A stretch of 39,458 nucleotides of DNA from a virus. Its lineage: Duplodnaviria; Heunggongvirae; Uroviricota; Caudoviricetes. The first letter of the stretch is position 1, and each line of letters opens with the position of its first letter. Below the pieces are notes generated by a model. That model was given only the letters and a program-made list of their open reading frames with translations. It did no database searches and was not told where the DNA came from. The stretch lies in the IMG/VR virus record IMGVR_UViG_2698536397_000026. One strand, 5' to 3'. Shown in pieces: positions 495 through 39,458 of this stretch. A program made the position numbers and the translations under genes.

Positions 495-1079
495 TTACGC
501 ACCAGCCTTTTTCTGGGTTACATTTAAATGATTAACCTTAGCTTCACATTCTTCATAAATCTCTCTTACAGTATCATCGGGTAACTCTTGTAGACTCAAT
601 GCTAGTGCTCTTTTGACTCCGCTCAATGAGTGTAGTTTTTGAATATCTGTATCAAGCAAAACGGTTAGTAGTTCGGCCCCTTTTCTGATCAATAAGTTGG
701 ACAAAATCTCTTGTTCAGATGAAGTTAGCGAGTCCCACGCCCTCATGATGATGGAATCACTATCATCAATTCTTTGTTTTTTTGTTCTTTTTGTTTGTTC
801 AATTGGTTCTTTTTTCATGCTTGGCTCATCACCATAACCATTGACTAGCCACTCCATAGATACATGTTCTCTTTCTGCAATGTTCTGGAGATGGTGCTTT
901 CTTGGTTGTGGTGGCGGCTGATTGTTTCTCCTTTTGTAGTAGTTCTGCAATGTCTGAACGTTTATTCCCCATGCTCTAGCCGCCTCACTTCTCGATTTGT
1001 AACGCTCTGCAAGACGAAAAATCCGTTCGATCACTGGTTCTTTTCCTTCGTCGAGAAAAGAACTGTTTTTCATGTTCAT
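495..1079 (-). CDS. repressor (Mu c-like), leftward; start chosen at internal ATG with AGGAA RBS (ORF extends to 1208)
   Basis: Divergent to ner at the left end as in Mu; HTH-like segment SRSEAARAWGINVQTLQNYYKRR; AAGGAA 8 nt upstream of ATG at 1079. Confidence 0.55.
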   Translation of the reverse strand: MNMKNSSFLDEGKEPVIERIFRLAERYKSRSEAARAWGINVQTLQNYYKRRNNQPPPQPRKHHLQNIAEREHVSMEWLVNGYGDEPSMKKEPIEQTKRTKKQRIDDSDSIIMRAWDSLTSSEQEILSNLLIRKGAELLTVLLDTDIQKLHSLSGVKRALALSLQELPDDTVREIYEECEAKVNHLNVTQKKAGA

Positions 1080-1118
1080 GCTCTCAGGTTCCTTTGTATT
1101 TATCTTATTGATATTAAT

Positions 1119-1180
1119 AACAAAAACACCGCAAAGAATAAAAAGAACAAAACACCTTGATTTGGTTCTTTTGTTTGTTC
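1119..1180. promoter_or_regulatory. candidate repressor operator repeats between c and ner
   Basis: Direct repeats AACAAAAACACC (1119..1130) and GAACAAAACACC (1145..1156), with inverted partner TGTTTGTTC (1172..1180), in an AT-rich divergent control region. Confidence 0.35.
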
Positions 1181-1186
1181 TATTAT
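1157..1186 (+). promoter_or_regulatory. candidate early promoter (Pe-like) for ner-A-B
   Basis: TTGATT -18 bp- TATTAT about 60 bp upstream of ner ATG. Confidence 0.35.
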
Positions 1187-1197
1187 TTACCCGTACA

Positions 1198-1221
1198 GAT
1201 ATCCGCACGAATATCCGCGCG
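1198..1221. promoter_or_regulatory. candidate Ner operator: tandem 12-bp repeats
   Basis: GATATCCGCACG immediately followed by AATATCCGCGCG, between candidate Pe and ner start; Mu Ner is known to bind tandem repeats in this position. Confidence 0.4.
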
Positions 1222-1496: not shown

Positions 1497-3587
1497 ATGT
1501 ATGTCATTGCAAAAGAACTGATTGGCGCGCCCGGAATGCCTGCTACAACAAAAGGTATTCGCCAGGCATTACAACGTTACGTACAAGGGAAAAGCTGTTG
1601 TTCCCGTCGTCGCTCAGGCTCTAAAGCAACTGAATACAGCATCGACTGTTTACCTGAAGTGACGCAGCAGGCATTACGTGAACGTTATGCCCTGCAACTG
1701 ATGACGCAAAAAGCCGATGAATCACCGGCTCCGGTGGTGACAAAGGCCAGACGCTCATCTGACGTGGTTGATGCGGTGGAGGCATATCGCGGATCACCAC
1801 AACTGATGGTCGAACGCCTCAATGCCCTGACTGAAAACCAGCGCCAGGTGGCTGATGCACGAATCGCGATCGTCAGCGAAGTGATGAAAGTCGCGCAACA
1901 ACCCGGTTTCAGCTGCGCGAAAGCTATCCGGTTTATCGTTGACAACCTGGCACGTTCGCAACTGGACGAGCGCATTGTGGCAATGGTTGAGACGGCGAAC
2001 GCCAAAAAGGGAAACAGCCGTGCGTTGAGTGAAATAACGCTGAAACGCTGGATTGCGGCCTTTAACAAGGCGCAGAACGCCGCTGAACGCCTGCTTTTAC
2101 TGGCACCGGGTAAGCGCCAGGAAATAAAAGCCGAAGATATTAACTGGCTGCCCGAATTTCTGGCGCAGTATCGCCAGTCAAACGGCCGACCAATGACCGA
2201 GGCTTACGAGGATTTTGTCGCTGAATGGCAGCACCGGCACGCTGATGAGCCTTATATGCTCGATATCATGCCGTCTTATGACACCATTCGCCGCGCAATG
2301 AAGAAACTGCCGGAAGTGGTGAAACAAAAAGGCCGGGTGACCGGCAGTGAATACCGCCAGCTTGAGGGATTCACGCGCCGCGACTGGTCAAAAATGCCGG
2401 TGAATTATGTCTGGATTGGTGACGGTCACGGCATGAAGCTGAAATGCGCACACCCGGTTCACGGTCGGCCATTTGCACCGGAAGTGACCTTTGTTATCGA
2501 CGGTGGCACGCGCTTTGTGGTGGGCTGGAGCCTTGACCTGGCTGAAAATGTTTTCGCCGTAGCCGGTGCCATACAGCACGGCATTCGCCATCACGGCAAA
2601 CCGTTTCTGTATTACTCGGATAACGGCTCCGGGGAAACCGCCGACATCCTGGATAAGGAGGTTGTGGGGATACTGCCGCGACTGGGGATTAATCACCCGA
2701 CCGGGATTGCCGGTAATCCGCAGGGACGAGGCATTATCGAACGGCTTAACCGCACATTACCGATGCGCATAGCCCGTAAATACCGCACCTATTTCGGGAA
2801 AGGTGCAGATCGCGAGACGTTACGCAAAACCAACCGCGATTTACGCTCGGCATTTACTGCCCTGCAACAGGGCAAACGGCTGAACGCCCGGCAGCAGTCA
2901 GCGATGCGTGATTTACCGTCCTGGTCTGAACTGATTGATGCCATTCGTGACGGTGTTGAGTGGTACAACAACCGGCCGCACGATGAATTACCGGTGAAGC
3001 CGAACGGCAAGCATTACAGCCCGGCGGAGTTCAGAAAAAAACGCCTGGCGGAAGAGGACACGGAAATTGAATGGCTGTCCGATGTTGAGCTGCGGGATAT
3101 GTTCCGGCCGATGGTGGAACGCCCTGTAAGACGCTGTGAAATACGCTGGCTGAATAATATTTACTACGCGCCCGAGCTGCGTGACGAGCATGGTCGTAAG
3201 GTGCTTATCAGCTATGACATTCATGATGCCGAACGAATTACCGTACGTCGCCTGGATGGCAGCGTGATTTGCGAGGCGGTATGGGACGGTAATAAACGCG
3301 AAGCCTTCCCGGTTAGCGCGGAATACTACAAACAGCAGCAACGCCTTAAAGGCATGCGTAAACGCGCAGAGGAAAAAATCCGTGATGCCGAGGATGAGGT
3401 TGTCAACGTGCTGGAGCACAAGCCGCAGGAGCCCTGGCTGGAAAACATATACCGCCCTGTGGGTAATACGGTGACCGTTCAGCAACCGGTCGCTGACGAT
3501 GAACCTGATGAAGAATACGAGCGTAATTTCCAGCGGGGATTGCAGTTGCTGGAAGCGAAATTAAAAGAAAATGACCCGCTGGCCTGA
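1497..3587 (+). CDS. A: Mu-type DDE transposase (MuA-like)
   Basis: 696 aa, second gene of early operon, start overlaps ner stop (TGATATG); size and position as MuA. Confidence 0.85.
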   Translation: MYVIAKELIGAPGMPATTKGIRQALQRYVQGKSCCSRRRSGSKATEYSIDCLPEVTQQALRERYALQLMTQKADESPAPVVTKARRSSDVVDAVEAYRGSPQLMVERLNALTENQRQVADARIAIVSEVMKVAQQPGFSCAKAIRFIVDNLARSQLDERIVAMVETANAKKGNSRALSEITLKRWIAAFNKAQNAAERLLLLAPGKRQEIKAEDINWLPEFLAQYRQSNGRPMTEAYEDFVAEWQHRHADEPYMLDIMPSYDTIRRAMKKLPEVVKQKGRVTGSEYRQLEGFTRRDWSKMPVNYVWIGDGHGMKLKCAHPVHGRPFAPEVTFVIDGGTRFVVGWSLDLAENVFAVAGAIQHGIRHHGKPFLYYSDNGSGETADILDKEVVGILPRLGINHPTGIAGNPQGRGIIERLNRTLPMRIARKYRTYFGKGADRETLRKTNRDLRSAFTALQQGKRLNARQQSAMRDLPSWSELIDAIRDGVEWYNNRPHDELPVKPNGKHYSPAEFRKKRLAEEDTEIEWLSDVELRDMFRPMVERPVRRCEIRWLNNIYYAPELRDEHGRKVLISYDIHDAERITVRRLDGSVICEAVWDGNKREAFPVSAEYYKQQQRLKGMRKRAEEKIRDAEDEVVNVLEHKPQEPWLENIYRPVGNTVTVQQPVADDEPDEEYERNFQRGLQLLEAKLKENDPLA

Positions 3588-3658
3588 AATAAAAAAATAA
3601 CCCGAGCGGCGACTCAGGTTATTTGATTAAACAAGGTATCAAATGAGAGGTTAATAAT

Positions 3659-9464: not shown

Positions 9465-9750
9465 TTCTCTGTTGTTCTGGTGCTTATATATCACATCCTT
9501 TTTCGGCGCATTTGTTATTACCCGGTGGTTATGTCGAAAAATCATCTGCTTTTTTGATAAAAGACATCCGGTTGAACGGGCGGCTGATGCGCTCATTCAG
9601 CAGGCCATTGTGTTATATAGCGGTGAATTTTTCTGCCGGATAACAACCAGAGATGGCTGGCACATAATGATTATTCCACCAACACACCATGCCCGGTGGG
9701 ATGAGGCAGAAAAGGCTTTCCATGTCCGTAAAAAGGTAAATACGGTATGA
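9454..9750 (+). CDS. hypothetical membrane-anchored early protein (98 aa)
   Basis: N-terminal hydrophobic LLFWCLYITSFFGAFVI; ATGA overlap with gemA. Confidence 0.5.
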   Translation: MDNSSLLFWCLYITSFFGAFVITRWLCRKIICFFDKRHPVERAADALIQQAIVLYSGEFFCRITTRDGWHIMIIPPTHHARWDEAEKAFHVRKKVNTV

Positions 9751-10256
9751 GAGGAAAACTGATATCCGCCATTCATGTGGCAAAGCGCGAGCTTGCCCTG
9801 GATGATGAGACTTATACATCCGCGCTGCTGGCAGCCACCGGCAAAACCAGCTGCCGGGATATGTCACCGGATGAGTTATCCCGCGTGCTGGATGTTTTCA
9901 AAAAACGCGGTTTTAAAGTGCGTCAGAACCCGGTTAACCGGGCCTTAAAACCGGGTACGGTGACCGCCAAAATTCGCGCCATCTGGAAGGTGATGCACCG
10001 GCAGGGCTTTATCTCTGATGGTGCGGAAACCGCCCTTAACCGCTGGGTGAAATCGCAGACGGCCGCGCAAAACGGCGGCGAAGGTGTGGCAAACTGGCAG
10101 TGGCTGGAGCAACACCCCGCCCTGGCCTCAGATGTGCTGGAGCGTCTCAAGCGATGGCACCGCCGCAAAATGCTGGCCGCGATGGGAATGCCCGAACGCA
10201 CGCTGATGGGGTATGACGCCGTTTGCAGGCAGTATGAAAAATCACTTCCCCGTTAA
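9747..10256 (+). CDS. gemA: GemA / Mu gp16-like regulatory protein
   Basis: 169 aa, last gene of early operon; N-terminal IHVAKRELALDDETY...TGKTSCRDMSPDEL pattern typical of GemA family as I recall it. Confidence 0.65.
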   Translation: MRGKLISAIHVAKRELALDDETYTSALLAATGKTSCRDMSPDELSRVLDVFKKRGFKVRQNPVNRALKPGTVTAKIRAIWKVMHRQGFISDGAETALNRWVKSQTAAQNGGEGVANWQWLEQHPALASDVLERLKRWHRRKMLAAMGMPERTLMGYDAVCRQYEKSLPR

Positions 10257-10260
10257 CTCC

Positions 10261-10290
10261 AAATCCCGCCACAACGCGGGATTTTTATTT
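10261..10290 (+). terminator. rho-independent terminator ending the early operon
   Basis: AAATCCCGC-CACAAC-GCGGGATTT hairpin followed by TTTATTTT. Confidence 0.65.
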
Positions 10291-10325: not shown

Positions 10326-10751
10326 ATGGCAGAAACTCAGATGAGCATGTTTGGTGGTGACAGTGAGCAACTGCACGCCCTTATCGACCGCCTTGATGAC
10401 ATCCCTGATGATGTTCTCAAAAAGAACTGGCCGCGGACCCTGTCAGAACTGGTTGAAGTCACCGGCGCAGAACTTCAGCGTCAGGGGATTGAGCCGGTAC
10501 TGGCCGGTAAACTGGCACGCAAGGTGGCTGCGGCTCAGGCAGCCTATATGGGCGGACGGGGTTATTACCTGCCGGTCGGGGAATCTCTCTTTGCCGAGCT
10601 GCGAAACAATGAGATATTTTCGCGCTGGGACCGGGGCGAGAAAATTGAATCCCTTCGCCGCCATTACCGGATGTCAGAAACCCAGATTTATACCGTCATA
10701 CGCGAACAGCGCCGTCTGCATCTGGCAAGAACGCAACCGCCACTTTTCTGA
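10326..10751 (+). CDS. Mor/C-family transcriptional activator (middle/late gene activator)
   Basis: 141 aa; C-terminal HTH region and ending ...QPPLF, similar to Mu Mor / C proteins as I recall them; own RBS GGAGG after terminator. Confidence 0.7.
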   Translation: MAETQMSMFGGDSEQLHALIDRLDDIPDDVLKKNWPRTLSELVEVTGAELQRQGIEPVLAGKLARKVAAAQAAYMGGRGYYLPVGESLFAELRNNEIFSRWDRGEKIESLRRHYRMSETQIYTVIREQRRLHLARTQPPLF

Positions 10752-10822
10752 TATTCCGCAAAGCCTGCCGCCTCTCCTTCACCGTTACGCTGACTCAGAG
10801 AACATCATGAGACAGCGTAACA

Positions 10823-16639: not shown

Positions 16640-17954
16640 TTTAGGTTATGCCGCCACCCTTCCCTCAAAAGAGGCGGTGGCATACTTCCGCGCCAAAGGG
16701 GCGCATATCAGCTGGAACTGGTTCGAAACAGACGCGGATGTTCATGCCCGTTCATTCACGGCGGCAAGAGTGGCACGCCTGGACGTACTGACCACACTAC
16801 AGGCGGAAGTGCAGCGTGCTGTTGATGAGGGGATTTCACAGAAAGCATTTATCAGCACGCTGACACCCCGCCTGCAAAAGCTGGGATGGTGGGGAAAACA
16901 GATTGTGGTGGACAGCGCCGGTAACGCAGAAGAAGTGCAGCTGGGCAGTCCCCGCCGTCTGGCGCTGATTTACAACGTGAACACCCGTGTGGCTTACAAT
17001 GCCGGGCGTTACACGCAGATGATGAACAACACGGACACGCATCCGTTCTGGCAGTATGTGGCGGTGATGGACAGCCGCACCCGCCCGGCGCATTCCGCTC
17101 TTAACGGTCTGGTATTCCGCTATGACGATCCGTTCTGGAATACACACTACCCACCCAATGGCTGGAACTGTCGCTGCCGTGTCCGGCCATTGTCTCAGGC
17201 CCGTCTGGATGCAATGGGGTTATCCGTTTCATCCGGTCAGGATCATCTCTCCACCCGCAATGTTGAGGCTGGCGTGGATAAGCAGACCGGGGAAGTCAGA
17301 GAAATGCCGGTGACCACATATTCAGATGGCACCAGAACCATGACACCGGATGTGGGCTGGTCATATAACCCCGGTTCGGCGGCGTTCGGCACAGACCAGG
17401 CGCTGATCCGTAAACTGATCGAGGTGAAAAGCCCGGCGCTGCGGGAAATGGTGGTTCAGGAGATGAACAACAGCCCGGAGCGGCAACTGGCGTTCCGCAT
17501 CTGGGCAAAAAACATCATGAAAACCCGGCGAGGCGGTAACGATATCCGCACGCTGGGCTTTATGACCGAAAGCATTGCGCAGGCGGTGGAAAGCCGGACG
17601 GGAACGCCACCGGCCCGCCTGCTGGCGATGAGCGGTAAAAATGTGCTCCATGCGGACAGCATGAAACATCAGAATGACGGTATCGCCCTGACGCCGGAGG
17701 ATTTCGGGCGCTTACCGGCAATGCTGGCAAGGCCAAAAGCGGTACTGTGGGACAAACGGCACAACAATCTGATGTATATCGTGGAAAATCAGGATGGCAG
17801 TGTGCAGATTGCCGTTAATGCACCGTACAGCCTGAAGCGTCAGCCGGATAAACTGGATGTGATTGTTAATGCTTACCGGGTTATCAATATGGATAAGCTG
17901 AAATCGGATATCCGGGGCGGAATGCTTGAGGTACTGGAAGGAGATATTGATTAA
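16623..17954 (+). CDS. head morphogenesis protein (Mu F-like)
   Basis: 443 aa, follows portal as in Mu. Confidence 0.6.
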   Translation: MAQGIDLGYAATLPSKEAVAYFRAKGAHISWNWFETDADVHARSFTAARVARLDVLTTLQAEVQRAVDEGISQKAFISTLTPRLQKLGWWGKQIVVDSAGNAEEVQLGSPRRLALIYNVNTRVAYNAGRYTQMMNNTDTHPFWQYVAVMDSRTRPAHSALNGLVFRYDDPFWNTHYPPNGWNCRCRVRPLSQARLDAMGLSVSSGQDHLSTRNVEAGVDKQTGEVREMPVTTYSDGTRTMTPDVGWSYNPGSAAFGTDQALIRKLIEVKSPALREMVVQEMNNSPERQLAFRIWAKNIMKTRRGGNDIRTLGFMTESIAQAVESRTGTPPARLLAMSGKNVLHADSMKHQNDGIALTPEDFGRLPAMLARPKAVLWDKRHNNLMYIVENQDGSVQIAVNAPYSLKRQPDKLDVIVNAYRVINMDKLKSDIRGGMLEVLEGDID

Positions 17955-18075
17955 CGGTCAGTGGCGGGGGTCGAACCCGCATACATGATCCACCCGGAGG
18001 CAGGCACCGACTTTACCAGTTAAGCGTACACTGACCGCCTGTTTATTTTATATTCATCCTTTATGCGGAGGCAAT

Positions 18076-18549
18076 ATGTCATCCATTGATGCCGCTGTCG
18101 TTGTTGACGTTACGCGTCTCCAGCGGGTCTTTGCCCGGCTTCAGTTTGTGGGTGGTGGAAAAGACCTGACCCGCAGTGTGGCGTCCAGCCTTCTGTCATC
18201 GTCAGAAATGGCGTTTGAACAGGAAAAAGAGCCGGACGGCGAACGCTGGCATGACTGGTCAGATCCTTACCGCAAGTGGCGTACCCGTAAGGGATACATG
18301 CCCGGCAAAATCCTGACGCTGAACGGCGATCTGGCCCGACGCCTGACCACGGATTATGGCGATACCTGGGCGCTGATTGGATCAAATGAGCCTTATGCGG
18401 CCATTCATCAGTGGGGGGGGCTGCTAGGTATGCCGCCTGGACCGGCGGCCATTGGTGCACGTCCGTATATGGGCTTTGATCAGGTGGCAGAGCAGGAGAT
18501 CATGGACGAAATCAGAAAACGCTTTAAAAAGGCCACAGAAACGCCTTAA
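18076..18549 (+). CDS. virion morphogenesis protein (Mu G-like)
   Basis: 157 aa; RBS GGAGG; position between F-like and I-like genes. Confidence 0.55.
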   Translation: MSSIDAAVVVDVTRLQRVFARLQFVGGGKDLTRSVASSLLSSSEMAFEQEKEPDGERWHDWSDPYRKWRTRKGYMPGKILTLNGDLARRLTTDYGDTWALIGSNEPYAAIHQWGGLLGMPPGPAAIGARPYMGFDQVAEQEIMDEIRKRFKKATETP

Positions 18550-18725
18550 TTGTTTAAGGTATGCAAATGCATTACCTTACCCCCTTCAGGCGCGTGTCGT
18601 GATTTTCTAACCTGAATTTAACGGGCTTTAAAATCTGCGTGAAGCGCCTTTGTATTTTTCCCCTGAAAGCACTTCCTGAAATCCCGCAAAACCCGCCCTG
18701 AAAATTCCCGGCTTATGCTGCCGGA

Positions 18726-19850
18726 ATGAAGACGAAAAACACGCCCAAACTTGCTTATGCCATTCTGAATGCCATCAGCCTGTCCGCAGACGGGGACGGT
18801 GACTGGTGTCAGATCATGCCAGCCGGTCGGGTAAAGGCCCGTGACGGTCGCCCGGAAAAACCGGCCGAGGGCTGGCTGATCAACCATGCAGCCGTTGAGC
18901 GCATGGTCTCCCGGGTTGTGGCGCTCAATCAGCCAGTGAAAATTGACTACAACCACCAGACCCTGATTAAGGGGCATCAGGCACCGGCTGCCGGTTTTGT
19001 GATGGCCTCACCGGAGAATTTTCGCTTCAGTGAAGAGCGTGGCTTCGAGGTGCGCCCGAAGTGGAACCCTCCGGCCCTTGAACATCTGCGTAATAACGAA
19101 TTCCCCTGGTTTTCACCGGTGATTGGCTATGACGAGAACACCGGCGAACCTGTCGAACTTCGGATGCTGGCTATTACCGGTGACCCCGGTCTGACCGGCA
19201 TGAATCCTGTCGCCGCGCTGTCGGCGGATGACCTTTATAACGCCTTAAACCCTCCTTTAAAGGATACCTCCATGAATGAGCAATTACGCCAGTTGCTGAC
19301 GGCGCTCGGTCTGACCGTGGCTGACGGTGACGAATTTACGCCGGAGCTGGGCACGGCGGCGCTGTCTGCCCTCACCGGGATCAAAACCCGTGCGGATGCA
19401 CACGACAACCTGAAAACACAGGTCGCCAGTCTGTCGGCAGAGCTGGAAACCGCAAAAGGCACACCGGCTGGCGGCAGTATTGATCTGACGAAATACGTGC
19501 CCGTTGAAACGTATAACGCCCTGCGTACCGAATACGTTGCGCTGTCGGCGCAGCACGGCAGCACCACGCTGGAGCAGTTGCTGGACAAGGCTGAATCCGA
19601 AGGGCGCATCTTCAAAAGCGAACGCGGCTATCTGGAACAACTGGGCGGGCAGATTGGCGTTGCGGCACTTTCTGCACAGCTTGACGCCCGCCAGCCGGTT
19701 GCGGCCCTGACCTCTCTTCAGACCGACACCGTGACCGTGCCGGATAAAAAGACTGCCACCGCTGCGCTGTCGGCTGAAGATATCGCGGCCGCCAAACTGC
19801 TGGGTAAAACCGAAGCCGAGTTCCTGAAAATGAAAGAGGAAATGCAATAA
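18726..19850 (+). CDS. head protease / scaffold protein (Mu I-like)
   Basis: 374 aa directly upstream of major capsid gene, Ala-rich C-terminal half. Confidence 0.6.
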   Translation: MKTKNTPKLAYAILNAISLSADGDGDWCQIMPAGRVKARDGRPEKPAEGWLINHAAVERMVSRVVALNQPVKIDYNHQTLIKGHQAPAAGFVMASPENFRFSEERGFEVRPKWNPPALEHLRNNEFPWFSPVIGYDENTGEPVELRMLAITGDPGLTGMNPVAALSADDLYNALNPPLKDTSMNEQLRQLLTALGLTVADGDEFTPELGTAALSALTGIKTRADAHDNLKTQVASLSAELETAKGTPAGGSIDLTKYVPVETYNALRTEYVALSAQHGSTTLEQLLDKAESEGRIFKSERGYLEQLGGQIGVAALSAQLDARQPVAALTSLQTDTVTVPDKKTATAALSAEDIAAAKLLGKTEAEFLKMKEEMQ

Positions 19851-24837: not shown

Positions 24838-24963
24838 AGAAGCGGCAATTATCCTGGGGATGGTGACAAAAAGCGGTCCGGAATGGGCGCTTAACCTCCC
24901 CCTGTCGCAACTTTACCGGCACTGCCGACAGACAGAAAAAATCATCAGAACGAAGCAGTAAGT

Positions 24964-27039
24964 ATGGCCCGAAATCTCAGAGCATCTCTGATAGTTGATT
25001 TGCTCGGCAATATCTCAGCCAAATCCCGCCAGTGGTCACAGGAGCTGGGGGCATTCTCACGCTCCGGCCAGGCGGGGCTGGGTGGCCTGGGAAATGCTGC
25101 CCGCCGTGCCGGGCAGGAAACAGATGTACTCGGAAGCAGGATGCAGCGCACGCTGGCCGGGGTGCGGGGCAGTATCCGCCATGTCACTTCTGATTTTGAC
25201 CGTCTTCAGGGCAGTATTACCGGCACCATCGGGCGGATCAGCAATCTTTACGGAATGCTGGCCGGTGGTGCTGCTGTATATGGCTTTAACCGGGGATTTA
25301 TTCGCCCGGCAGCGGAGATGGAAACCTATATGATTCGCCTGAACTCCCTTTACAAAGGGGATCGGGCGAAAACTGATGATGTCCGCAGGTGGGCAATACA
25401 GAATGCGAAGGAAACCACCTGGGGGCTGGCTGGCGTCATGCAGGAATATACGTCCAGTCTGGGCTTTGGTATGAGTGACAGGGAGGCCCGAAATTTTGTC
25501 ACCATGCTTCAGGATCAGGGTGCCGTGGGCGGCTGGTCACTGTCCGATGCACAGGGGGCATCCCTGCAACTGAAACAGATGTATGCAAGAGGCAGTATTC
25601 AGGCGGCGGATGCAAATATTCTTGCCACCTACGGCATTAATGCCTACCGCGTGCTGGCTGATCGTCTGGGTGTGGACCAGAAAGTGGTCAGAAAACTTGG
25701 TGAAAAAGGGCTGCTTGGGCCGGACAGTATTCGCCTGTTATTTCAGACGCTGGCGGAACAGGCCAGGGGAGCACAAAAGGACGCAATGAATTCCTGGAGT
25801 GGCCTGACGGCCATGATGGGTGACGTCTGGGATCAGTTTGCCCGGGATGTGATGGACAGTGGGCCATTTGAAAAACTGAAGGGTAATCTCAGGGGATTTC
25901 TTTCATGGGTTGACAGTGCCAAATCTGATGGCAGTTACCATTCCCTGGCGGAAAGCACGGCATCAGCCATGAACCAGGGCTTTGAGTATGCCCGTGATGC
26001 AGTGACAGGGTTTTATCAGGCGATCAGAAAGGTACGCGACACGCTTCAGGCTCTGCGGGATGCGGGCTATGGTGATGCGCTGGATCGCATTGGTCAGGGG
26101 GCACAGACCGCCGCGAAATACCTGCTGTACATGTATCTCGCCACCCGTGCCCTGAAAATGGCGCGGGCTGTCGGAACGGGGATTATACGTCCGGGTGCTG
26201 CATTGCTGGGATACGGATTATCAGCGGCGGCCTTCCTGACTTCACCTTTCCGGCGCTCTCCTCCGGCCGGAACACCACCAGGCACATCTCAGGGACGAGG
26301 GCAACGTTTTATAAACTTTCTTACCGGGGTAAATCCGGCAGCCGTTCAGCCAGTACTTGTAACAAACTGGCCCACAGGAGGACTGTCCGGCACCGGCGCG
26401 ACCGATACTTCCTCAGGCGGACGTCAGGGGCGGGGCCGCAGGAAACGCGGACCGGGGCGCGGAAGACCGGTCACGCCTCCCCTGCCACCGTCCCCAGTGC
26501 CACCGTCTCCCTCTTCTGGTGGGGCAGGGTTCTGGGGGCGCATGATGGGGCGCGCCGGTGGGTTACTTTCGTCTGTCGGTAGCCGCATGGGGCTGGGGCG
26601 TTTCTCCGGCTTTTTCCGCAGTGCCGGTGGACTGGCCGGCCGGCTGGGTGGCGGTGCCCTGTGGGCTGGCGCGATGGCAGCCCCGGTTCTGCTGGATGGC
26701 AGCGCCAGTGCCACAGACAAGGGAGAAGCGGTCGGCTCTCTTGCAGGCAGTATTGCCGGTGGTGCGCTGGGGGCGGCAGCCGGACCTGTGGGGATTGCCA
26801 TTGGTTCTACGGTGGGCAGCTATCTCGGTAACTATCTGGGGGGATGGCTGACTGAAGCCTGGCAGAAATTACGGGGCAGTGATGATGAAAGCAGTGGACA
26901 GGCGGTACAAAAAGCCTCTGCCCGTGTGGAGCTGGTTGCCCCGGAAGGGTGGCAGGCTCGCAGTATTGATATTGATGACACGTCCGGTCACGGACTGGAT
27001 GTGAATGTCTGGAACGGAGGGAATTATGGCCTCTGGTGA
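24964..27039 (+). CDS. tail tape measure protein
   Basis: 691 aa, largest tail ORF, Gly/Ala-rich with Pro/Arg low-complexity segment. Confidence 0.7.
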   Translation: MARNLRASLIVDLLGNISAKSRQWSQELGAFSRSGQAGLGGLGNAARRAGQETDVLGSRMQRTLAGVRGSIRHVTSDFDRLQGSITGTIGRISNLYGMLAGGAAVYGFNRGFIRPAAEMETYMIRLNSLYKGDRAKTDDVRRWAIQNAKETTWGLAGVMQEYTSSLGFGMSDREARNFVTMLQDQGAVGGWSLSDAQGASLQLKQMYARGSIQAADANILATYGINAYRVLADRLGVDQKVVRKLGEKGLLGPDSIRLLFQTLAEQARGAQKDAMNSWSGLTAMMGDVWDQFARDVMDSGPFEKLKGNLRGFLSWVDSAKSDGSYHSLAESTASAMNQGFEYARDAVTGFYQAIRKVRDTLQALRDAGYGDALDRIGQGAQTAAKYLLYMYLATRALKMARAVGTGIIRPGAALLGYGLSAAAFLTSPFRRSPPAGTPPGTSQGRGQRFINFLTGVNPAAVQPVLVTNWPTGGLSGTGATDTSSGGRQGRGRRKRGPGRGRPVTPPLPPSPVPPSPSSGGAGFWGRMMGRAGGLLSSVGSRMGLGRFSGFFRSAGGLAGRLGGGALWAGAMAAPVLLDGSASATDKGEAVGSLAGSIAGGALGAAAGPVGIAIGSTVGSYLGNYLGGWLTEAWQKLRGSDDESSGQAVQKASARVELVAPEGWQARSIDIDDTSGHGLDVNVWNGGNYGLW

Positions 27040-28375
27040 CGGTCGTGGTGCGTTCCGTGGTGTGCCGTTCCTCGTCTGGCGTGAGCAGCGCGAACGTGGC
27101 GGGCGAAACATTGTCCGTCGGGAATATCCGTTACGGGAAACCGGTGGTGCAGACGATCTGGGACCTAAACTGGCTGAATTTACGTTCAGTGTACTTGTGA
27201 TGGGGGATGATGTTCAGACACAGCGAAATCGTCTGCGTGATGCCCTTCGTGCTCCTGGTGCCGGGGAGCTGCTTCACCCGGATTACGGCACGTTAAATGT
27301 GCTGATAAACAGCTTTGAAAGTCGTTATAACGCTGCTGAACAGGGCGTGGTTGAGTTCACCATTAATGTCACGCCGGTAAGTGATGATACCGCACCTGCT
27401 GTCACACAGGACACGGCCGCCATTCTGGAGCAGAAGAGTACCACCGCGCTCGGGAAGGTTTTTGAAACCCTGGAAGCGGGCTGGACGGTGATTTCTGACG
27501 GAATGCACGATGTCCAGGCAATGACCGAAACCATCAGCGATAAGGTGTCCGCCCTGGAAAATGCCGTTTCCGGCATGGGGATTGTACAGGATATCAGTGC
27601 CTTTACTGCCACGTTCACGGCGCTGAAAGGGAATGCCACGGCATTACTGACAGCACCTTCCCGCATGGCCTCATCTTTTGCGGGGCTTTTCAGTGCCCTG
27701 ATCACCCTGCCATCGCTGCCGTCACTGTCTTCAGGAGGCCTGAATACCCGGCCCGGTGGCAGTATCGGCCGGACGACATCCGCCGTCTCTCAGGGAATGC
27801 CGCAACTGTACAGGACATTATCTTCCCTGCGTTACGTGCTGGATGAGCAGGATAATCCGCAGACTCTCATCGGTCTGACACCGGCAGCACAAAAGAATAT
27901 TCGTCTGATACGGGCGGTAATGCAGAGTGCTGCCGTGGTGGCCCAGGCACAGACCGTGGGAAAACTGCTGGATCAGGTTCTCAGTCAGGAAACCCTGCCG
28001 GACAGTGACGCAGCCCACCGTACCTGGCCTGTCTGGCTGGAAAGTTCAGTTGATCTTCAGCGCATTAACCGTGACTTAAGCGAAGCGCTCGAACGGCAGG
28101 TGATGACACTGTCCGGGCAGGGGTATACCGCCACGGCGCTGACGCTTCGTGATGCCAGACTGGCACTGACAGAGGATCTGAATACACGGGGAGTTCAGCT
28201 ACCCGGTGCAACAGTAGTGACTGTACGTACCACCGAGCCTGCACTGGTGACCCTGTACCGTGCCACCGGGAACAGTACCGGCTGGCAACGTTTTGTGCGC
28301 CGTAACGGTATTGTTGATCCGCTGTTCATTCCCGGAGGCCATTCAGTGGAGGTGATTAGTGAGCAGCAGGGTTGA
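27026..28375 (+). CDS. DNA circularization protein (Mu N-like)
   Basis: about 449 aa after tape measure; RBS GGAGGG before ATG 27026. Confidence 0.55.
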   Translation: MASGDGRGAFRGVPFLVWREQRERGGRNIVRREYPLRETGGADDLGPKLAEFTFSVLVMGDDVQTQRNRLRDALRAPGAGELLHPDYGTLNVLINSFESRYNAAEQGVVEFTINVTPVSDDTAPAVTQDTAAILEQKSTTALGKVFETLEAGWTVISDGMHDVQAMTETISDKVSALENAVSGMGIVQDISAFTATFTALKGNATALLTAPSRMASSFAGLFSALITLPSLPSLSSGGLNTRPGGSIGRTTSAVSQGMPQLYRTLSSLRYVLDEQDNPQTLIGLTPAAQKNIRLIRAVMQSAAVVAQAQTVGKLLDQVLSQETLPDSDAAHRTWPVWLESSVDLQRINRDLSEALERQVMTLSGQGYTATALTLRDARLALTEDLNTRGVQLPGATVVTVRTTEPALVTLYRATGNSTGWQRFVRRNGIVDPLFIPGGHSVEVISEQQG

Positions 28376-33095: not shown

Positions 33096-33617
33096 TTATT
33101 CCGGTTTTTCCGGCCAGGGAATCGCCTGGTAATGCCCCTCACTGGCAATATCATTAAAGTGCATTTCTTTAAGCTGTCGGATATACGCCATCCAGCGCGT
33201 CAGCTGTAATTTATTTTCATCGCTAATCATGTCCAGTTTTAATTCTGTTTTCCAGTCATCCACGGTTTCGTTGGCTTCCTGGAGCAGCGATGAGCGACGC
33301 TTTTCAGCAACCGTCTTCCAGTTTACCGGCACCTTTGATATCAGGCCATCAGAAAACTGCCAGTTACCGTCAATATTCACACCTTCCGGCAGTTCGTCCA
33401 CTTCAACAACAGTAAAACCTGCCGGATATAAAGCAGAGACATCTTCAGCAACAGAGCAGATAATACCCGTTACAGGCGAAATACAGAGTTTGTATTTCTT
33501 TGTGAAAAGCGGGATAGATTCATAAAAATCCCTTCCGTCCTCACTCTGGAAATACTGAACATCCTCACCATAGGGTTTGTGTTTCGGGTAATATCGTTTG
33601 ACATTAATCAGTTGCAT
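33096..33617 (-). CDS. tail fibre assembly protein (Tfa / U'-like)
   Basis: N-terminal region MQLINVKRYYPKHKPYGEDVQYFQSEDGRDFYE typical of Tfa chaperones; start probably at an internal Met (track ORF extends to 33668). Confidence 0.7.
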   Translation of the reverse strand: MQLINVKRYYPKHKPYGEDVQYFQSEDGRDFYESIPLFTKKYKLCISPVTGIICSVAEDVSALYPAGFTVVEVDELPEGVNIDGNWQFSDGLISKVPVNWKTVAEKRRSSLLQEANETVDDWKTELKLDMISDENKLQLTRWMAYIRQLKEMHFNDIASEGHYQAIPWPEKPE

Positions 33618-33738
33618 AAACATCACCATGTAAATCAATGATAAAAACAGGAATAATACTATCGCCATATACAGGCAATGCTTGTCTGAAATAACGCATA
33701 TTTCAGATGCTGGCTGCTGTGTGCTATGCCCCCGTTAA

Positions 33739-34093
33739 TTAAATACTTGCAGCGGATACCCAATGCCCATTAATACAATATTGTATCTGTCTGTAATAAA
33801 CACGGTCATCACCACCACGCATTTCCCAGTCTCCGTTAGTCTTAAAACCGGTAATCACATTTCCTGATGACAGGGAGTAATTATATTCCAGTCCGCCGCT
33901 TAATGCCTGCGCTCCCAGTCTTACCCCTGTAACATAACGCTGATTGGCCGTTGATTCCGGCATTCCTGACGTAATGTTTATATCCTGCGTGCCGTCAAAG
34001 GCGACACCATTGATTCTGCGGGCATTTGCCAGCCTGCTTGCTGCAACAGCCGTACCGTTTGATGGCAGGGCATTCGCGGCCCTGTTTACAGTA
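33739..34093 (-). CDS. alternative tail fibre C-terminal cassette (S'v), no own start codon
   Basis: Minus-strand frame open from right gix site; encodes ...INGVAFDGTQDINITSGMPESTANQRYV... homologous to the end of the plus-strand fibre gene. Confidence 0.6.
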
Positions 34094-34117
34094 TCCCGTA
34101 AACCGAGGTTTCAGGGA
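34094..34117. other. right gix-like inversion site
   Basis: TCCCGTAAACCGAGGTTTCAGGGA, near-palindromic and close to the Mu gix / Salmonella hix consensus as I recall it; 55 bp upstream of gin. Confidence 0.6.
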
Positions 34118-34172
34118 TGCCGTATATCTGCTTTAAAAGGCCTTTCCATCTCTTTTTAAGGAAGGTAAATAC

Positions 34173-34733
34173 ATGCTGATTGGCTATATACGCGTATCAA
34201 CAAATGACCAGAACACAGGTTTACAAAGAAATGCGCTGGAATGTGCAGGATGTGAGCAGATTTTTGAAGATAAAATGAGCGGAAAAACAACGCAGCGGCC
34301 GGGACTGAAGCGGGCACTGAAGAAACTAAAACCCGGTGACACGCTGATGGTCTGGAAACTGGACAGGCTGGGGCGCAGTATGCGCCACCTTGTTGCGCTG
34401 ACAGATGAATTACAGCAACAGGGGATAAATTTTCGTAGTCTTACTGACAACATTGATACGTCAACCCCCATGGGGCGCTTCTTTTTTCACATAATGGGTG
34501 CGCTGGCAGAAATGGAGCGTGAATTAATTGTCGAACGGACACGGGCTGGTCTTGCAGCTGCCCGTGAAAGGGGACGAACCGGCGGCAGACCCCGTCGTCT
34601 CACGCAGGAACAATACGAGCAGGTCGGGCGTTTACTGGCCGGGGGTGTCAGTCGAAGACAGGTGGCACTTATTTTTGATATCGGCCTTTCAACCCTTTAT
34701 CGTTATTATCCTGCGAGCGTTTCGGAAAAATAA
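34173..34733 (+). CDS. gin: serine recombinase, DNA invertase (Gin/Hin/Cin family)
   Basis: 186 aa; MLIGYIRVSTNDQ... catalytic Ser motif and C-terminal HTH; RBS AAGGAAGG. Confidence 0.9.
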   Translation: MLIGYIRVSTNDQNTGLQRNALECAGCEQIFEDKMSGKTTQRPGLKRALKKLKPGDTLMVWKLDRLGRSMRHLVALTDELQQQGINFRSLTDNIDTSTPMGRFFFHIMGALAEMERELIVERTRAGLAAARERGRTGGRPRRLTQEQYEQVGRLLAGGVSRRQVALIFDIGLSTLYRYYPASVSEK

Positions 34734-34823
34734 GACGCTCCCTTTGTTGGGCCTTTACTGAATTAACGCAAAATGGCGTTTATCGGTCTGTGGATATGAT
34801 AATTCTGTTTATTCAGGAACAGG

Positions 34824-36881
34824 ATGAATATTATGACGTCCAAATGGGTTCAACTATCATCAATGCCCGGAAACTTTACCGTTAAAGTTTCCGGTGGTAC
34901 AGCGGCATTTCTTGAGGCTCCCTTTCCTCCTGCTGAAACGAAAGGAGGAATGACATTTGCTGACTGTCTCATCAGTTTTAATACACAGGATTGCCTGTGG
35001 GTAAGGCCAGTATCCGGTGATCCGAACGTGGAAATTACCGGAGCGGGTATTGGTGCTGTCATTCCGTTAAGTGCTGATGTTGCCGGTACTACTGAACCGT
35101 CAGACTGGGATAATGCAGAAACACATACCCGTCCGGCAGGAAATGAAACTGCTTCCAGCTCCCCTTCCTGGTATTACGTGATTGTTATAGCCGGCCAGTC
35201 CAATGCTTCATCTTATGGTGAAGGGTTGCCCCTTCCGGATTCTTATGATCGTCCTGATCCACGTATTATGCAGCTGGCACGCAGGAATACACAAACCCCC
35301 GGAGGTATTCCCTGCAAATACAATGAAATCATTCCAGCAGATCACTGCCTTCATGATGTTCAGAATATGAGTCTGCTGAACCATCCAAAAGCAGACCTGA
35401 AAAAAGGGCAGTATGGTTGTGTGGGGCAGGGACTTCATATTGCGAAAAAAGTATTACCGGTGATTCCTGCTGATGCCGGGATTTTACTGGTTCCCTGTGC
35501 CCGTGGCGGCTCTGCTTTTACAACCGGCGCAGTTGGCTCATTCGATCCGGCAAGTGGTGCAGCCGAGGCGTCACTACGCTGGGGAGTGGATACCCCACTG
35601 TATCAGGATCTTGTCAGTCGAACTAAAGCGGCACTTGAGGCGAATCCAAAGAATGTGCTGTTATCTGTCGTATGGATTCAGGGGGAAGGAGACCTTAAAG
35701 CGACCCCGGCCCAGCATGGTGCCCAGTTTACTGCGATGGTGAAAAAATTCCGTGCGGATCTTGGTGCTTTCTCCGGTCAGTGTATTGGTGGTTCATCAGA
35801 CAGTGTGCCGTGGTTATGTGGTGACACAACCTATGACTGGAAAGAGAAGAACCCGGCGGCATATGAAACCATTTATAGCGGATATAAAAACCGGGCTTCC
35901 GAGAACATTCACTTTGTTCCACTGATGCACGATGAGTTCGGTAATAAAACCGCGACCAACCTGCCGGAGCACGACCCGGATATCGCTTCTGCCGGGTATT
36001 ATGGTGCGGAATCACGGGGAGATGGCAACTGGACAACAGCATCCAGGGCAACCCATTTTAGCTCCTGGGCGCGCCGTTTTCTGGTCTCAGATCGTTTTGC
36101 ATCAGCAATTCTTAAATATGCAGGTCTGACCTCTGCATTTATTGCCGGTGTGGCCCCTGATGGTGAAGCCCTGCCTCAGCCCGCGCCGGGTGGGAAACCG
36201 GAAGCGCCGACAGGTAGTCAGCCAGGAGGCAGTGAGTCCCCCCATCCGACATCCCCGTCACTCCGTACGCTGCTTTCACTTAAAGCATCAGCAGGAGAAG
36301 CCCCGGCTCAGGGCTGGAAAATTACAGATGGTACAATCCAGCTGACGGACGAAGGTAAAGCGTTGACCGTATCCAAACAAAGCGGAAAAACCTGGACGCT
36401 TACCCATGGAACTGATGCAGCCGGTGAACTTCTGAAGCATGGTGGTCAGTTGACCTGTAAATTCCGTCTGTCAGGTGAAGTAAAAGAAGGCCAGTTTGCT
36501 CTGGGTATTTACCTCCACACCGATACGGTCCCGGAAGGTGTAACCATGAGTGGTACAGGCACACCGTTCCTGATGGCGTATTATCTCCAGACAACAGGCG
36601 GCCAGTTAAATCTGATGCACCATAAAACAGGGGGGAATACGAAACTGGGATCATTTGGAGCCTACAATAACCAGTGGCATACACTTGTCCTGAAGTTTAC
36701 GGCGGGAAGTGCCCAGGTAACGCCTGTGCTGGATGGCACTCCGGGCCAGGCATTCCAGATGGTGAAAGATGCACTTTCCCCTGCCAAAGATACGCTGACA
36801 CTGACAGATGTCACCAAAGGGGCAACTTATGGCGTGTCTTTTGAGAGCGTTGTCCTTGAGGTTAATACCCCTGCGGCATAA
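34824..36881 (+). CDS. SASA/SGNH-family carbohydrate esterase (sialate O-acetylesterase-like) with Pro-rich linker and C-terminal beta-sandwich/lectin-like domain; cargo gene
   Basis: 685 aa; block I IAGQSNASSYGEG, block WIQGEGD, no N-terminal signal peptide; Pro-rich linker PQPAPGGKPEAPTGSQPGGSESPHPTSPS; not part of the Mu gene set. Confidence 0.65.
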   Translation: MNIMTSKWVQLSSMPGNFTVKVSGGTAAFLEAPFPPAETKGGMTFADCLISFNTQDCLWVRPVSGDPNVEITGAGIGAVIPLSADVAGTTEPSDWDNAETHTRPAGNETASSSPSWYYVIVIAGQSNASSYGEGLPLPDSYDRPDPRIMQLARRNTQTPGGIPCKYNEIIPADHCLHDVQNMSLLNHPKADLKKGQYGCVGQGLHIAKKVLPVIPADAGILLVPCARGGSAFTTGAVGSFDPASGAAEASLRWGVDTPLYQDLVSRTKAALEANPKNVLLSVVWIQGEGDLKATPAQHGAQFTAMVKKFRADLGAFSGQCIGGSSDSVPWLCGDTTYDWKEKNPAAYETIYSGYKNRASENIHFVPLMHDEFGNKTATNLPEHDPDIASAGYYGAESRGDGNWTTASRATHFSSWARRFLVSDRFASAILKYAGLTSAFIAGVAPDGEALPQPAPGGKPEAPTGSQPGGSESPHPTSPSLRTLLSLKASAGEAPAQGWKITDGTIQLTDEGKALTVSKQSGKTWTLTHGTDAAGELLKHGGQLTCKFRLSGEVKEGQFALGIYLHTDTVPEGVTMSGTGTPFLMAYYLQTTGGQLNLMHHKTGGNTKLGSFGAYNNQWHTLVLKFTAGSAQVTPVLDGTPGQAFQMVKDALSPAKDTLTLTDVTKGATYGVSFESVVLEVNTPAA

Positions 36882-36938
36882 TCGTGACGGCCGGGAATTT
36901 ATCCGGCTGTAACATCAGTTAATAAGAGTGAGGCTTAT

Positions 36939-37118
36939 ATGACATATATAAACGTCTGCCTGCTGTATTTCTGCACGGTGGTTTGTTGTCTGTTGCTTGT
37001 CAGCGGTGGTTATAAAATTATTCGCAATTATTTTCGAAATAAAATTGATGCAGCTGCCGAGGAAAAGATAAAAAGCGGTGCTGTAATGCCGCAGCCGAAA
37101 GACTCCGGTCAGATTTAA
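36939..37118 (+). CDS. small membrane peptide (59 aa)
   Basis: RBS GAGTGAGG; hydrophobic N-terminus VCLLYFCTVVCCLLLVSGG; below 60-aa track cut-off. Confidence 0.4.
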   Translation: MTYINVCLLYFCTVVCCLLLVSGGYKIIRNYFRNKIDAAAEEKIKSGAVMPQPKDSGQI

Positions 37119-37153
37119 TTTTTTGTGAACCAGAAAAGGAAAGGAGAATATTC

Positions 37154-38951: not shown

Positions 38952-39036
38952 AGTATCAAATAAGTTGCGTATCGGCGTTTTTCAGCGGTATCAAATGAAA
39001 TGCAAATCGGTATCAAAAAAATCGCCGCGCTATACA
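38952..39036. repeat. attR: right end with three inverted transposase-binding repeats (rTTTGATACY at 38952, 38988, 39009), terminus ...GCGCTATACA
   Basis: GGTATCAAA / AGTATCAAA are reverse complements of left-end repeats; terminal CGCCGCGCTATACA resembles the Mu right end in my recollection. Confidence 0.5.
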
Positions 39037-39350: not shown

Positions 39351-39458
39351 ATGACGCTCGCGCAGTTTGCCATGATTTTCTGGCACGACCTGGCAGCACC
39401 GATCCTGGCGGGAATTATTACCGCAGCGATTGTCGGCTGGTGGCGTAACCGGAAGTAA
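39351..39458 (+). CDS. ldr: Ldr-family type I toxin peptide (35 aa), flanking host copy 2
   Basis: MTLAQFAMIFWHDLAAPILAGIITAAIVGWWRNRK; differs from copy 1 at 2 of 108 nt (K5Q plus one silent change). Confidence 0.6.
   Translation: MTLAQFAMIFWHDLAAPILAGIITAAIVGWWRNRK

Follow-up and report, generated by a model that had tools for sequence, protein, structure and literature searches.

Homology and conservation point to an Sp18-type version of the Mu strong gyrase site, terminator and late promoter in the G-I gap of a Mu-like prophage

[quoted passage not shown] A non-coding stretch in the middle of a Mu-like prophage, between genes resembling Mu G and I, raises the question of whether a site of the same kind is found there, and how much of the stretch it occupies. 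We addressed this question in a window of 39,458 nucleotides (i.e., the whole stretch of DNA analysed), which contains a complete Mu-like transposable prophage of 38,813 bp (224-39036). The prophage begins with TGTAACC at 224 and ends with CTATACA at 39036, and TTTGATACC transposase-site repeats are present at both ends. Pfam families found within it are Mu portal, F, G (PF05069), I protease (PF10123), major head protein T and GemA, and further the Mor/C-family activator, lysozyme, tape measure, baseplate protein Gp45 and Mom.

The gap is bounded on the left by a G-like virion morphogenesis gene (18076-18549, plus strand; Pfam PF05069, E = 2.4e-33; 53% identical to Mu G) and on the right by an I-like head protease/scaffold gene (18726-19850, plus strand; Pfam PF10123, E = 7.2e-77), the first gene of the P_I operon, whose ATG at 18726 is kept in relatives even when the first 30 codons have diverged. 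Between the G-like stop at 18549 and the I-like start at 18726 lie 176 bp (18550-18725); here the ends of the open reading frames (ORFs) and the Pfam matches confirmed the earlier note, made from the sequence alone, which had described a 176-bp non-coding gap between these two genes. Its placement close to the centre of the element also held, as the gap lies at 47.2-47.7% of the length of the 38,813-bp prophage, compared with 48.7% (17879/36717) for the gyrase cut site in Mu. The further statement that this was the only sizeable intergenic region of the structural block holds approximately: the gap is the largest in the late region, but a 121-bp gap between F and G (17955-18075) and a 126-bp gap (24838-24963) exist as well. 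The latter lies where the Mu tail chaperone is frameshift-extended and, by analogy with that frameshifted protein, is probably coding.

We consider it very likely (with a probability of roughly 0.85) that the gap is the Sp18-type version of the Mu G-I module, i.e., an SGS combined with a terminator and the late promoter P_I. It is a known, already described feature of the Mu-like phage family. The analogy with the central SGS of Mu drawn in the earlier note is supported by position, by homology and by the reported SGS function of Sp18, with a correction as to extent: the gyrase site occupies only the left ~100 bp of the gap, and the remaining ~70 bp correspond to the late promoter of I.

In the Mu GenBank records, the gyrase cut site is placed at 17879/17880, at a distance of 20 bp from the end of G. 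The G-I gap of Mu, which is syntenic with that of the window, also holds a predicted terminator (17908-17953, TransTermHP) and the late promoter P_I (17977-18043). Alignment of this region with the window gap, a check named in the earlier note, produced a 34-bp block (window 18591-18624, Mu 17901-17934) with 26 of 34 positions identical, which occupies gap positions 42-75 in both phages, i.e., has an identical offset from the G stop. The block (blastn E = 9e-5; local score of 18 compared with 9.5±1.5 for shuffled sequences, with 0 of 2000 shuffles reaching 18) corresponds to the proximal portion of the right arm in the Mu SGS, and the role of this arm has been described previously (PMC6379681, PMC11626157, PMC13284261). 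Based on Mu homology and conservation, 18586-18652 (no strand assigned) was annotated as the right-arm homologue, with phased A/T blocks GATTTTCTAAC (18601-18611), GAATTTAA (18614-18621) and CTTTAAAATC (18626-18635). The predicted SGS core (18558-18585, likewise without strand) is only loosely similar to that of Mu: with window GGTATGCAAATG^CATT aligned to Mu GGCATAAAATC^AGCC, the top strand would be cut at 18569/18570, give or take ~2 bp, and the 4-bp stagger would reach 18573/18574. The left arm, which is dispensable in Mu (PMC10052514; PMC13284261), would by analogy be formed by the 3' end of the G-like gene.

The Mu and window gaps therefore have in common their flanking genes, a central position (47% in the window and 48.7% in Mu), the right-arm block and its offset from the G stop and, further along, a terminator hairpin overlapping the arm and then the late promoter P_I. 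They differ in length, the window gap being 20 bp shorter and its I leader ~26 nt shorter than in Mu, and in the first A/T block of Mu (TTTTTTAAAA), which corresponds to a C-rich stretch in the window, where the extra block CTTTAAAATC follows; this first block is missing in Sp18-type gaps, which have CCCCCTTCAGGCGCG where Mu has TTTTTTAAAACGCG. The pattern GATTTTYWAACCKGWATTTAACGG occurs once in the window, with no occurrence expected by chance, and was found in 38 IMG/VR contigs. G was detectable in 36 of these, and there the pattern begins at position 52 counted from the G stop (53 in a single contig). It is always located between G and I, in gaps of either 196-197 bp (Mu-type) or 175-177 bp (Sp18-type).

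At the level of the whole element, identity to prophage Sp18 of E. coli O157:H7 Sakai (NC_002695.2, 5040971-5079729) amounts to 98.2% over 32.5 kb. The Sp18 gap is also 176 bp long and identical to that of the window at 173 of 176 positions, the three substitutions from Sp18 to the window being T>A at 18615 (in the right arm), G>A at 18666 and C>T at 18713 (beside the -10). The A at 18615 is private to the window among the 14 gap variants described below. The SGS of Sakai Sp18 (Oram and Pato 2004, J Bacteriol 186:4575) is covered in the review PMC10052514, which describes the SGS of this Sakai Mu-like prophage as the sole site tested in Pato's swaps that could stand in for the Mu SGS in Mu replication. 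Among natural heterologous sequences, the Sp18-type site alone is reported to take over the job of the Mu SGS. The gyrase sites of pSC101 and pBR322 did not support Mu replication (PMC10052514). Within the collection searched, the G-I region of Sp18-type phage was present in 228 of 5426 complete E. coli genomes, the carriers including many O157:H7 and other Shiga-toxin-producing strains.

To assess conservation, we compared two sets of Sp18-type gaps. Seven E. coli relatives were fetched by megablast with a 501-bp query, i.e., independently of the GATTTTYWAACCKGWATTTAACGG pattern, and in all of them 18586-18652 is invariant except for 18615; the right arm stays invariant also in those relatives in which the start of I (first 30 codons) is strongly diverged. 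The second set consisted of 14 distinct Sp18-type gap variants, in which 18601-18624 was fixed by the search pattern and the rest of the arm was free to vary. With that limit, the right arm was the least variable segment of the gap (3 of 67 columns variable), compared with 7 of 36 columns in the core, 13 of 24 in the T-run and spacer, 3 of 22 in the C-activator box of P_I, 5 of 11 in the spacer that follows this box and 2 of 17 in the inverted repeat with the -10.

More distant relatives, with G proteins 52-72% identical, were Citrobacter braakii, an Enterobacteriaceae isolate, Erwinia tracheiphila and three Kluyvera. Their gaps display the same order of features, i.e., phased TTTAAA-type blocks, a pyrimidine-rich tract, the promoter box and an inverted repeat at the I start, and the phased blocks recur in Citrobacter, Kluyvera, Erwinia and the distant relative L015. 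The Citrobacter gap, at 174 bp, aligns globally with a score of 97 compared with 37.6±9.0 for shuffled sequences. The earlier note had held that a gyrase site at this position should be accompanied by a conserved intergenic element in related prophages, and such an element is present in both E. coli and distant enterobacterial relatives. No I homologue adjoining G was found in Treponema, Desulfobacterales and Proteobacteria MAGs (L020-L023), meaning that these are uninformative about the gap.

For plasmid SGSs (pSC101, pBR322) and the genome-wide 130-bp gyrase motif, gyrase preference has been described as determined by a cleavage core between arms in which A/T and G/C content is phased (Sutormin et al. 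2018, PMC6379681), a layout that the window site would share. A/T blocks at a spacing of ~11-12 bp are visible in the right arm. A crude W/S template, built from the 133-bp consensus published by Sutormin et al., scored the window site at z 2.5 (rank 542 of 78,652), while the same template gave the true Mu SGS a z of 3.4 and placed it only 29th of 73,170 positions. Likewise, in an A/T periodogram the window arm (+25 to +110) peaked at 12.5 bp and ranked at the 2.4th percentile, and the validated Mu arm ranked no higher than the 10-17th percentile within the Mu genome. Given that template and periodogram miss even the validated Mu site, neither test discriminates, and sequence-only gyrase scores were set aside as too weak to serve as evidence. 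The window site, with its unremarkable motif score, is assigned by homology to the class of Mu-like prophage sites, which distinguishes it from the plasmid sites.

The sequence of the right arm also builds a terminator-like RNA hairpin with a U-run (18588-18659, plus strand). In the predicted fold, an outer stem pairs 18588-18593 with 18644-18649 around an inner stem GUGAUUUU/AAAAUC, and UUGUAUUUUU follows at 18650-18659. The fold of 18580-18665 has an energy of -21.8 kcal/mol (z -3.07), with 0 of 200 shuffles as stable, and the annotated TransTermHP terminator of Mu has the same design (-19.8 kcal/mol, z -3.79). A simple terminator scan of the gap found nothing because the 62-nt stem-loop is beyond its loop limit. 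As a predicted terminator, the hairpin would end the late transcript that runs from lys to G.

Downstream of the hairpin, the right part of the gap holds the predicted late promoter. The C-activator box of P_I, TGAAATCCCGCAAAACCCGCC (18677-18697, plus strand), was located by column-for-column alignment with the mapped P_I box of Mu, in which window CTGAAATCCCGCAAAACCC aligns on Mu CTCAAATAGCATAACCCC and the 28-nt register to the -10 is identical; the window box contains CCGCAAAACCC. The -10 hexamer TATGCT (18714-18719, plus strand) stands in the register of Mu CAAACT, and its counterparts in the same register are TAAGCT in Citrobacter, TAAAAA in Kluyvera and TAAGAA in Erwinia. A -35 consensus is absent upstream of the P_I -10, as in the activator-dependent late promoters of Mu, and such dependence on an activator would explain why a simple promoter scan found no canonical sigma-70 promoter in the gap.

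A sister late promoter, equivalent to Plys, lies upstream of lys (10749-10791, plus strand), with the box TGATATTCCGCAAAGCCTGCC at 10749-10769, a 16-nt spacer and TACGCT at 10786-10791. Its box is identical to that of P_I at 17 of 21 positions and its spacing is the same, such that both the lys (10749-10791) and the I (18677-18719) promoters consist of a 21-nt box, an unconserved 16-nt spacer and TAYGCT. Mu Plys (ATAATCCCGCACCTGCC ... TAGACTGCCATCAGAGAA) is similar to the window lys promoter. The C-dependent late promoters of Mu are Plys, P_I, P_P and Pmom (Margolin et al. 1989, PMID 2522923; AF083977 annotation). A common CC(A/G)NAA-N-CC(C) box 28 nt upstream of the -10 was found in these four Mu promoters, in the window lys and I promoters and in P_I of the relatives, and among the 14 gap variants box and -10 are kept while the spacers between them vary. 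Window and Mu late promoters thus share a box 28 nt upstream of a weak -10, the lack of a -35 and a Mor/C-family activator gene just before lys. They differ in that the window box reads CCGCAAA(A/G)CC compared with CCATAACCCC in Mu, in that only two clear copies of the box were found in the window, in addition to the weak candidate described below, and in that just 6 nt separate the P_I -10 from the start codon of I. The likely activator is a C orthologue (10326-10751, plus strand; Mor family PF08765, E = 2.8e-32), which is 39% identical to Mu C (E = 4e-35) compared with 27% to Mor, is annotated in Sakai as 'positive regulator of late transcription' and has the C box of the gap as its predicted target.

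At the very end of the gap, an inverted repeat of the form CCGGC-n7-GCCGG (18708-18724, plus strand, with arms at 18708-18712 and 18720-18724; fold -10 kcal/mol, z -2.3) encloses the -10 TATGCT in its loop and leaves a single base between itself and the I start codon. Citrobacter, Kluyvera, Erwinia and Mu have inverted repeats of unrelated sequence in the corresponding position (z -1.7 to -5.1), and Citrobacter has no alternative in-frame ATG, which leaves the I ATG as the conserved start. Since the P_I -10 ends 6 nt before this ATG, P_I transcripts would be leaderless or nearly so and, since in all five lineages the 5' arm of the repeat lies upstream of the predicted transcription start, the hairpin would form only in read-through RNA arriving from lys-G. 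It is conceivable, though rather doubtful, that a hairpin confined to read-through RNA abuts or covers the I start codon and in this way ties translation of an almost leaderless I mRNA to initiation at P_I. If this were true, a single piece of DNA would combine the roles of a gyrase arm, a terminator, a promoter and a translational insulator.

The gap could instead be transcriptional punctuation only, i.e., the lys-G terminator followed by P_I, with the right arm kept as a hairpin and lacking any particular role for gyrase. Folding supports the hairpin and its U-run well, P_I is equally well supported, the sequence-based gyrase scores are weak, and a terminator role alone could explain why the right arm is conserved. 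The pattern across lineages speaks against this reading. The paired bases differ between Mu (stem CGGGAUU/AAUCCCG) and the window (AGGCGC/GCGCCU plus GUGAUUUU/AAAAUC), whereas the primary sequence GATTTT..AAC...TTTAACGG with its A/T blocks is kept in both Mu and Sp18-type phages, which argues for a DNA constraint beyond the needs of a hairpin; the pattern suggests a constraint on the right arm at the DNA level in addition to that on the RNA. Moreover, in Citrobacter a compact hairpin with a U-run lies just after the A/T blocks and not around them, and the near-identical Sakai site is reported to replace the Mu SGS functionally. We thus regard a purely transcriptional role as possible but unlikely, and as a poorer fit to the cross-lineage pattern and to the published Sp18 result than the module with a gyrase site. 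A concealed gene, either for a small protein or for a structured RNA, would be another way to account for a gap of this size. Phage D108 has an annotated 43-codon ORF ('31.5') in its own gap, and several ORFs of 20-119 codons touch the gap of the window, but across relatives none of these is kept in frame, strand or length, and no Rfam family matched the gap at E <= 1. With neither a conserved ORF nor an Rfam match, we rejected this explanation as having next to no likelihood.

The earlier note had also pointed to CTGAA(A/T) repeats in the gap, which might be a real repeated binding motif, for gyrase or for another phage or host protein, that organises the site. Four copies are indeed present on the plus strand (at 18612, 18663, 18676 and 18698), and the gap is the sole cluster of at least 4 copies in the window; the third copy (CTGAAA) overlaps the upstream edge of the P_I C box, and CCCCTGAAAG also occurs in L015. 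Yet CTGAAW is a common word in the window (70 copies on the plus strand, 109 on both strands), and when 70 sites were placed at random, 19% of trials had at least 4 of them within some 176-bp stretch. Conservation is lacking as well: 2 copies are found in the gap of Sakai Sp18, 3 in STEC2018-607 and 1 in L015, and none in the gaps of FORC069, 23CRST049, Citrobacter, Mu, Erwinia and Kluyvera. At the level of individual copies, the first depends on the window-private A at 18615, the second and fourth lie in spacers, which are the most variable stretches of the gap, and the equivalent of the third at the sister lys promoter reads CTGATA. On these statistical and conservation grounds a functional repeat is very improbable and was rejected; the copies are chance features scattered across the modules of the gap, unrelated to the gyrase site, and should not be carried forward as a feature.

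How the preferred reading, i.e., an SGS with terminator and late promoter, would work can be outlined from Mu. There, gyrase cleaves the core while the right arm wraps on the GyrA C-terminal domain and supplies the T segment, and processive supercoiling sets the prophage apart as a separate domain and brings its ends together (PMC10052514, PMC6379681, PMC11626157, PMC13284261). For the window, both this mechanism and the gyrase function of the near-identical Sp18 site are carried over from the literature by analogy. Host DNA gyrase would bind the left ~100 bp of the gap with a cleavage centre near 18569/18570, and the right arm (~18586-18652, possibly further) would wrap the GyrA C-terminal domain to present the T segment. 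Starting at the middle of the prophage, processive supercoiling could then extrude it as a plectonemic loop, by which the ends at 224 and 39036 would be paired for transpososome assembly and replicative transposition. On the transcriptional side, the RNA hairpin and U-run of the right arm would stop the lys-to-G late transcript, and the C orthologue would activate P_I in the right ~70 bp for expression of the head genes from I onward. The features common to the functional arms of Mu and Sp18-type phages are GATTTT..AAC, TTTAACGG and the offset from G, and a comparison of the two types of arm could guide mutational work on gyrase wrapping.

Several further observations concern the late promoters and their activator. 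The search for a third and fourth copy of the late promoter returned only a weak candidate for P_P at ~27975-28021 (TCAGTCAGGAAACCCTGCCGG ... CACCGT), inside the N-like gene (27005-28375). This candidate (~28016) is 343 nt upstream of the P-like gene, near the position of P_P inside N in Mu; its score is low and the similarity may reflect coding homology. No late-promoter box was found before com/mom. The window carries a single Mor/C-family gene, immediately before lys, and lacks the separate Mor gene and middle operon of Mu: downstream of GemA (9747-10256) there is a terminator-like hairpin (~10262-10290), and the next genes are already the C orthologue and lys.

Other observations concern the prophage as a whole. 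Near-identical host ORFs of the Ldr toxin type (MTLAKFAMIFWHDLAAPILAGIITAAIVGWWRNRK) flank the prophage at 1-108 and 39351-39458, indicating that a host long-direct-repeat (ldr) locus is its site of insertion; in Sakai, it is sorM that Sp18 interrupts. The two prophages also differ in the immunity region, in part of the tail-fibre region and in one accessory region. Specifically, 397-1085, 33609-33930 and 35636-37139 are diverged from Sakai Sp18 or have no blastn match to it, and 33931-35635, between two of these unmatched stretches, is only 89% identical. As 397-1085 covers the repressor/immunity region (ORF 495-1208, minus strand), the window copy is probably of a different immunity type from Sp18. 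Among the more distant gaps, that of L014 (Edwardsiella anguillarum; 2981-3656) measures 676 bp, with A/T blocks just after G followed by ~500 bp of AT-rich, insertion-like extra DNA, possibly with a small gene on the opposite strand.

Finally, the 121-bp F-G gap of the window prophage, which is absent altogether from Mu, contains a tRNA-like element (17956-18035, minus strand). Its score against the Rfam tRNA model is 31.0 bits (gathering score 29, E = 2.5e-4). The anticodon-arm region is too large, at 24 nt compared with 18 in the model, and ARAGORN made no call on the element. PGAP labels the same place 'tRNA-OTHER' in relatives, and between the window and Sakai Sp18 the D and T arms of the element are kept while its middle is strongly different.
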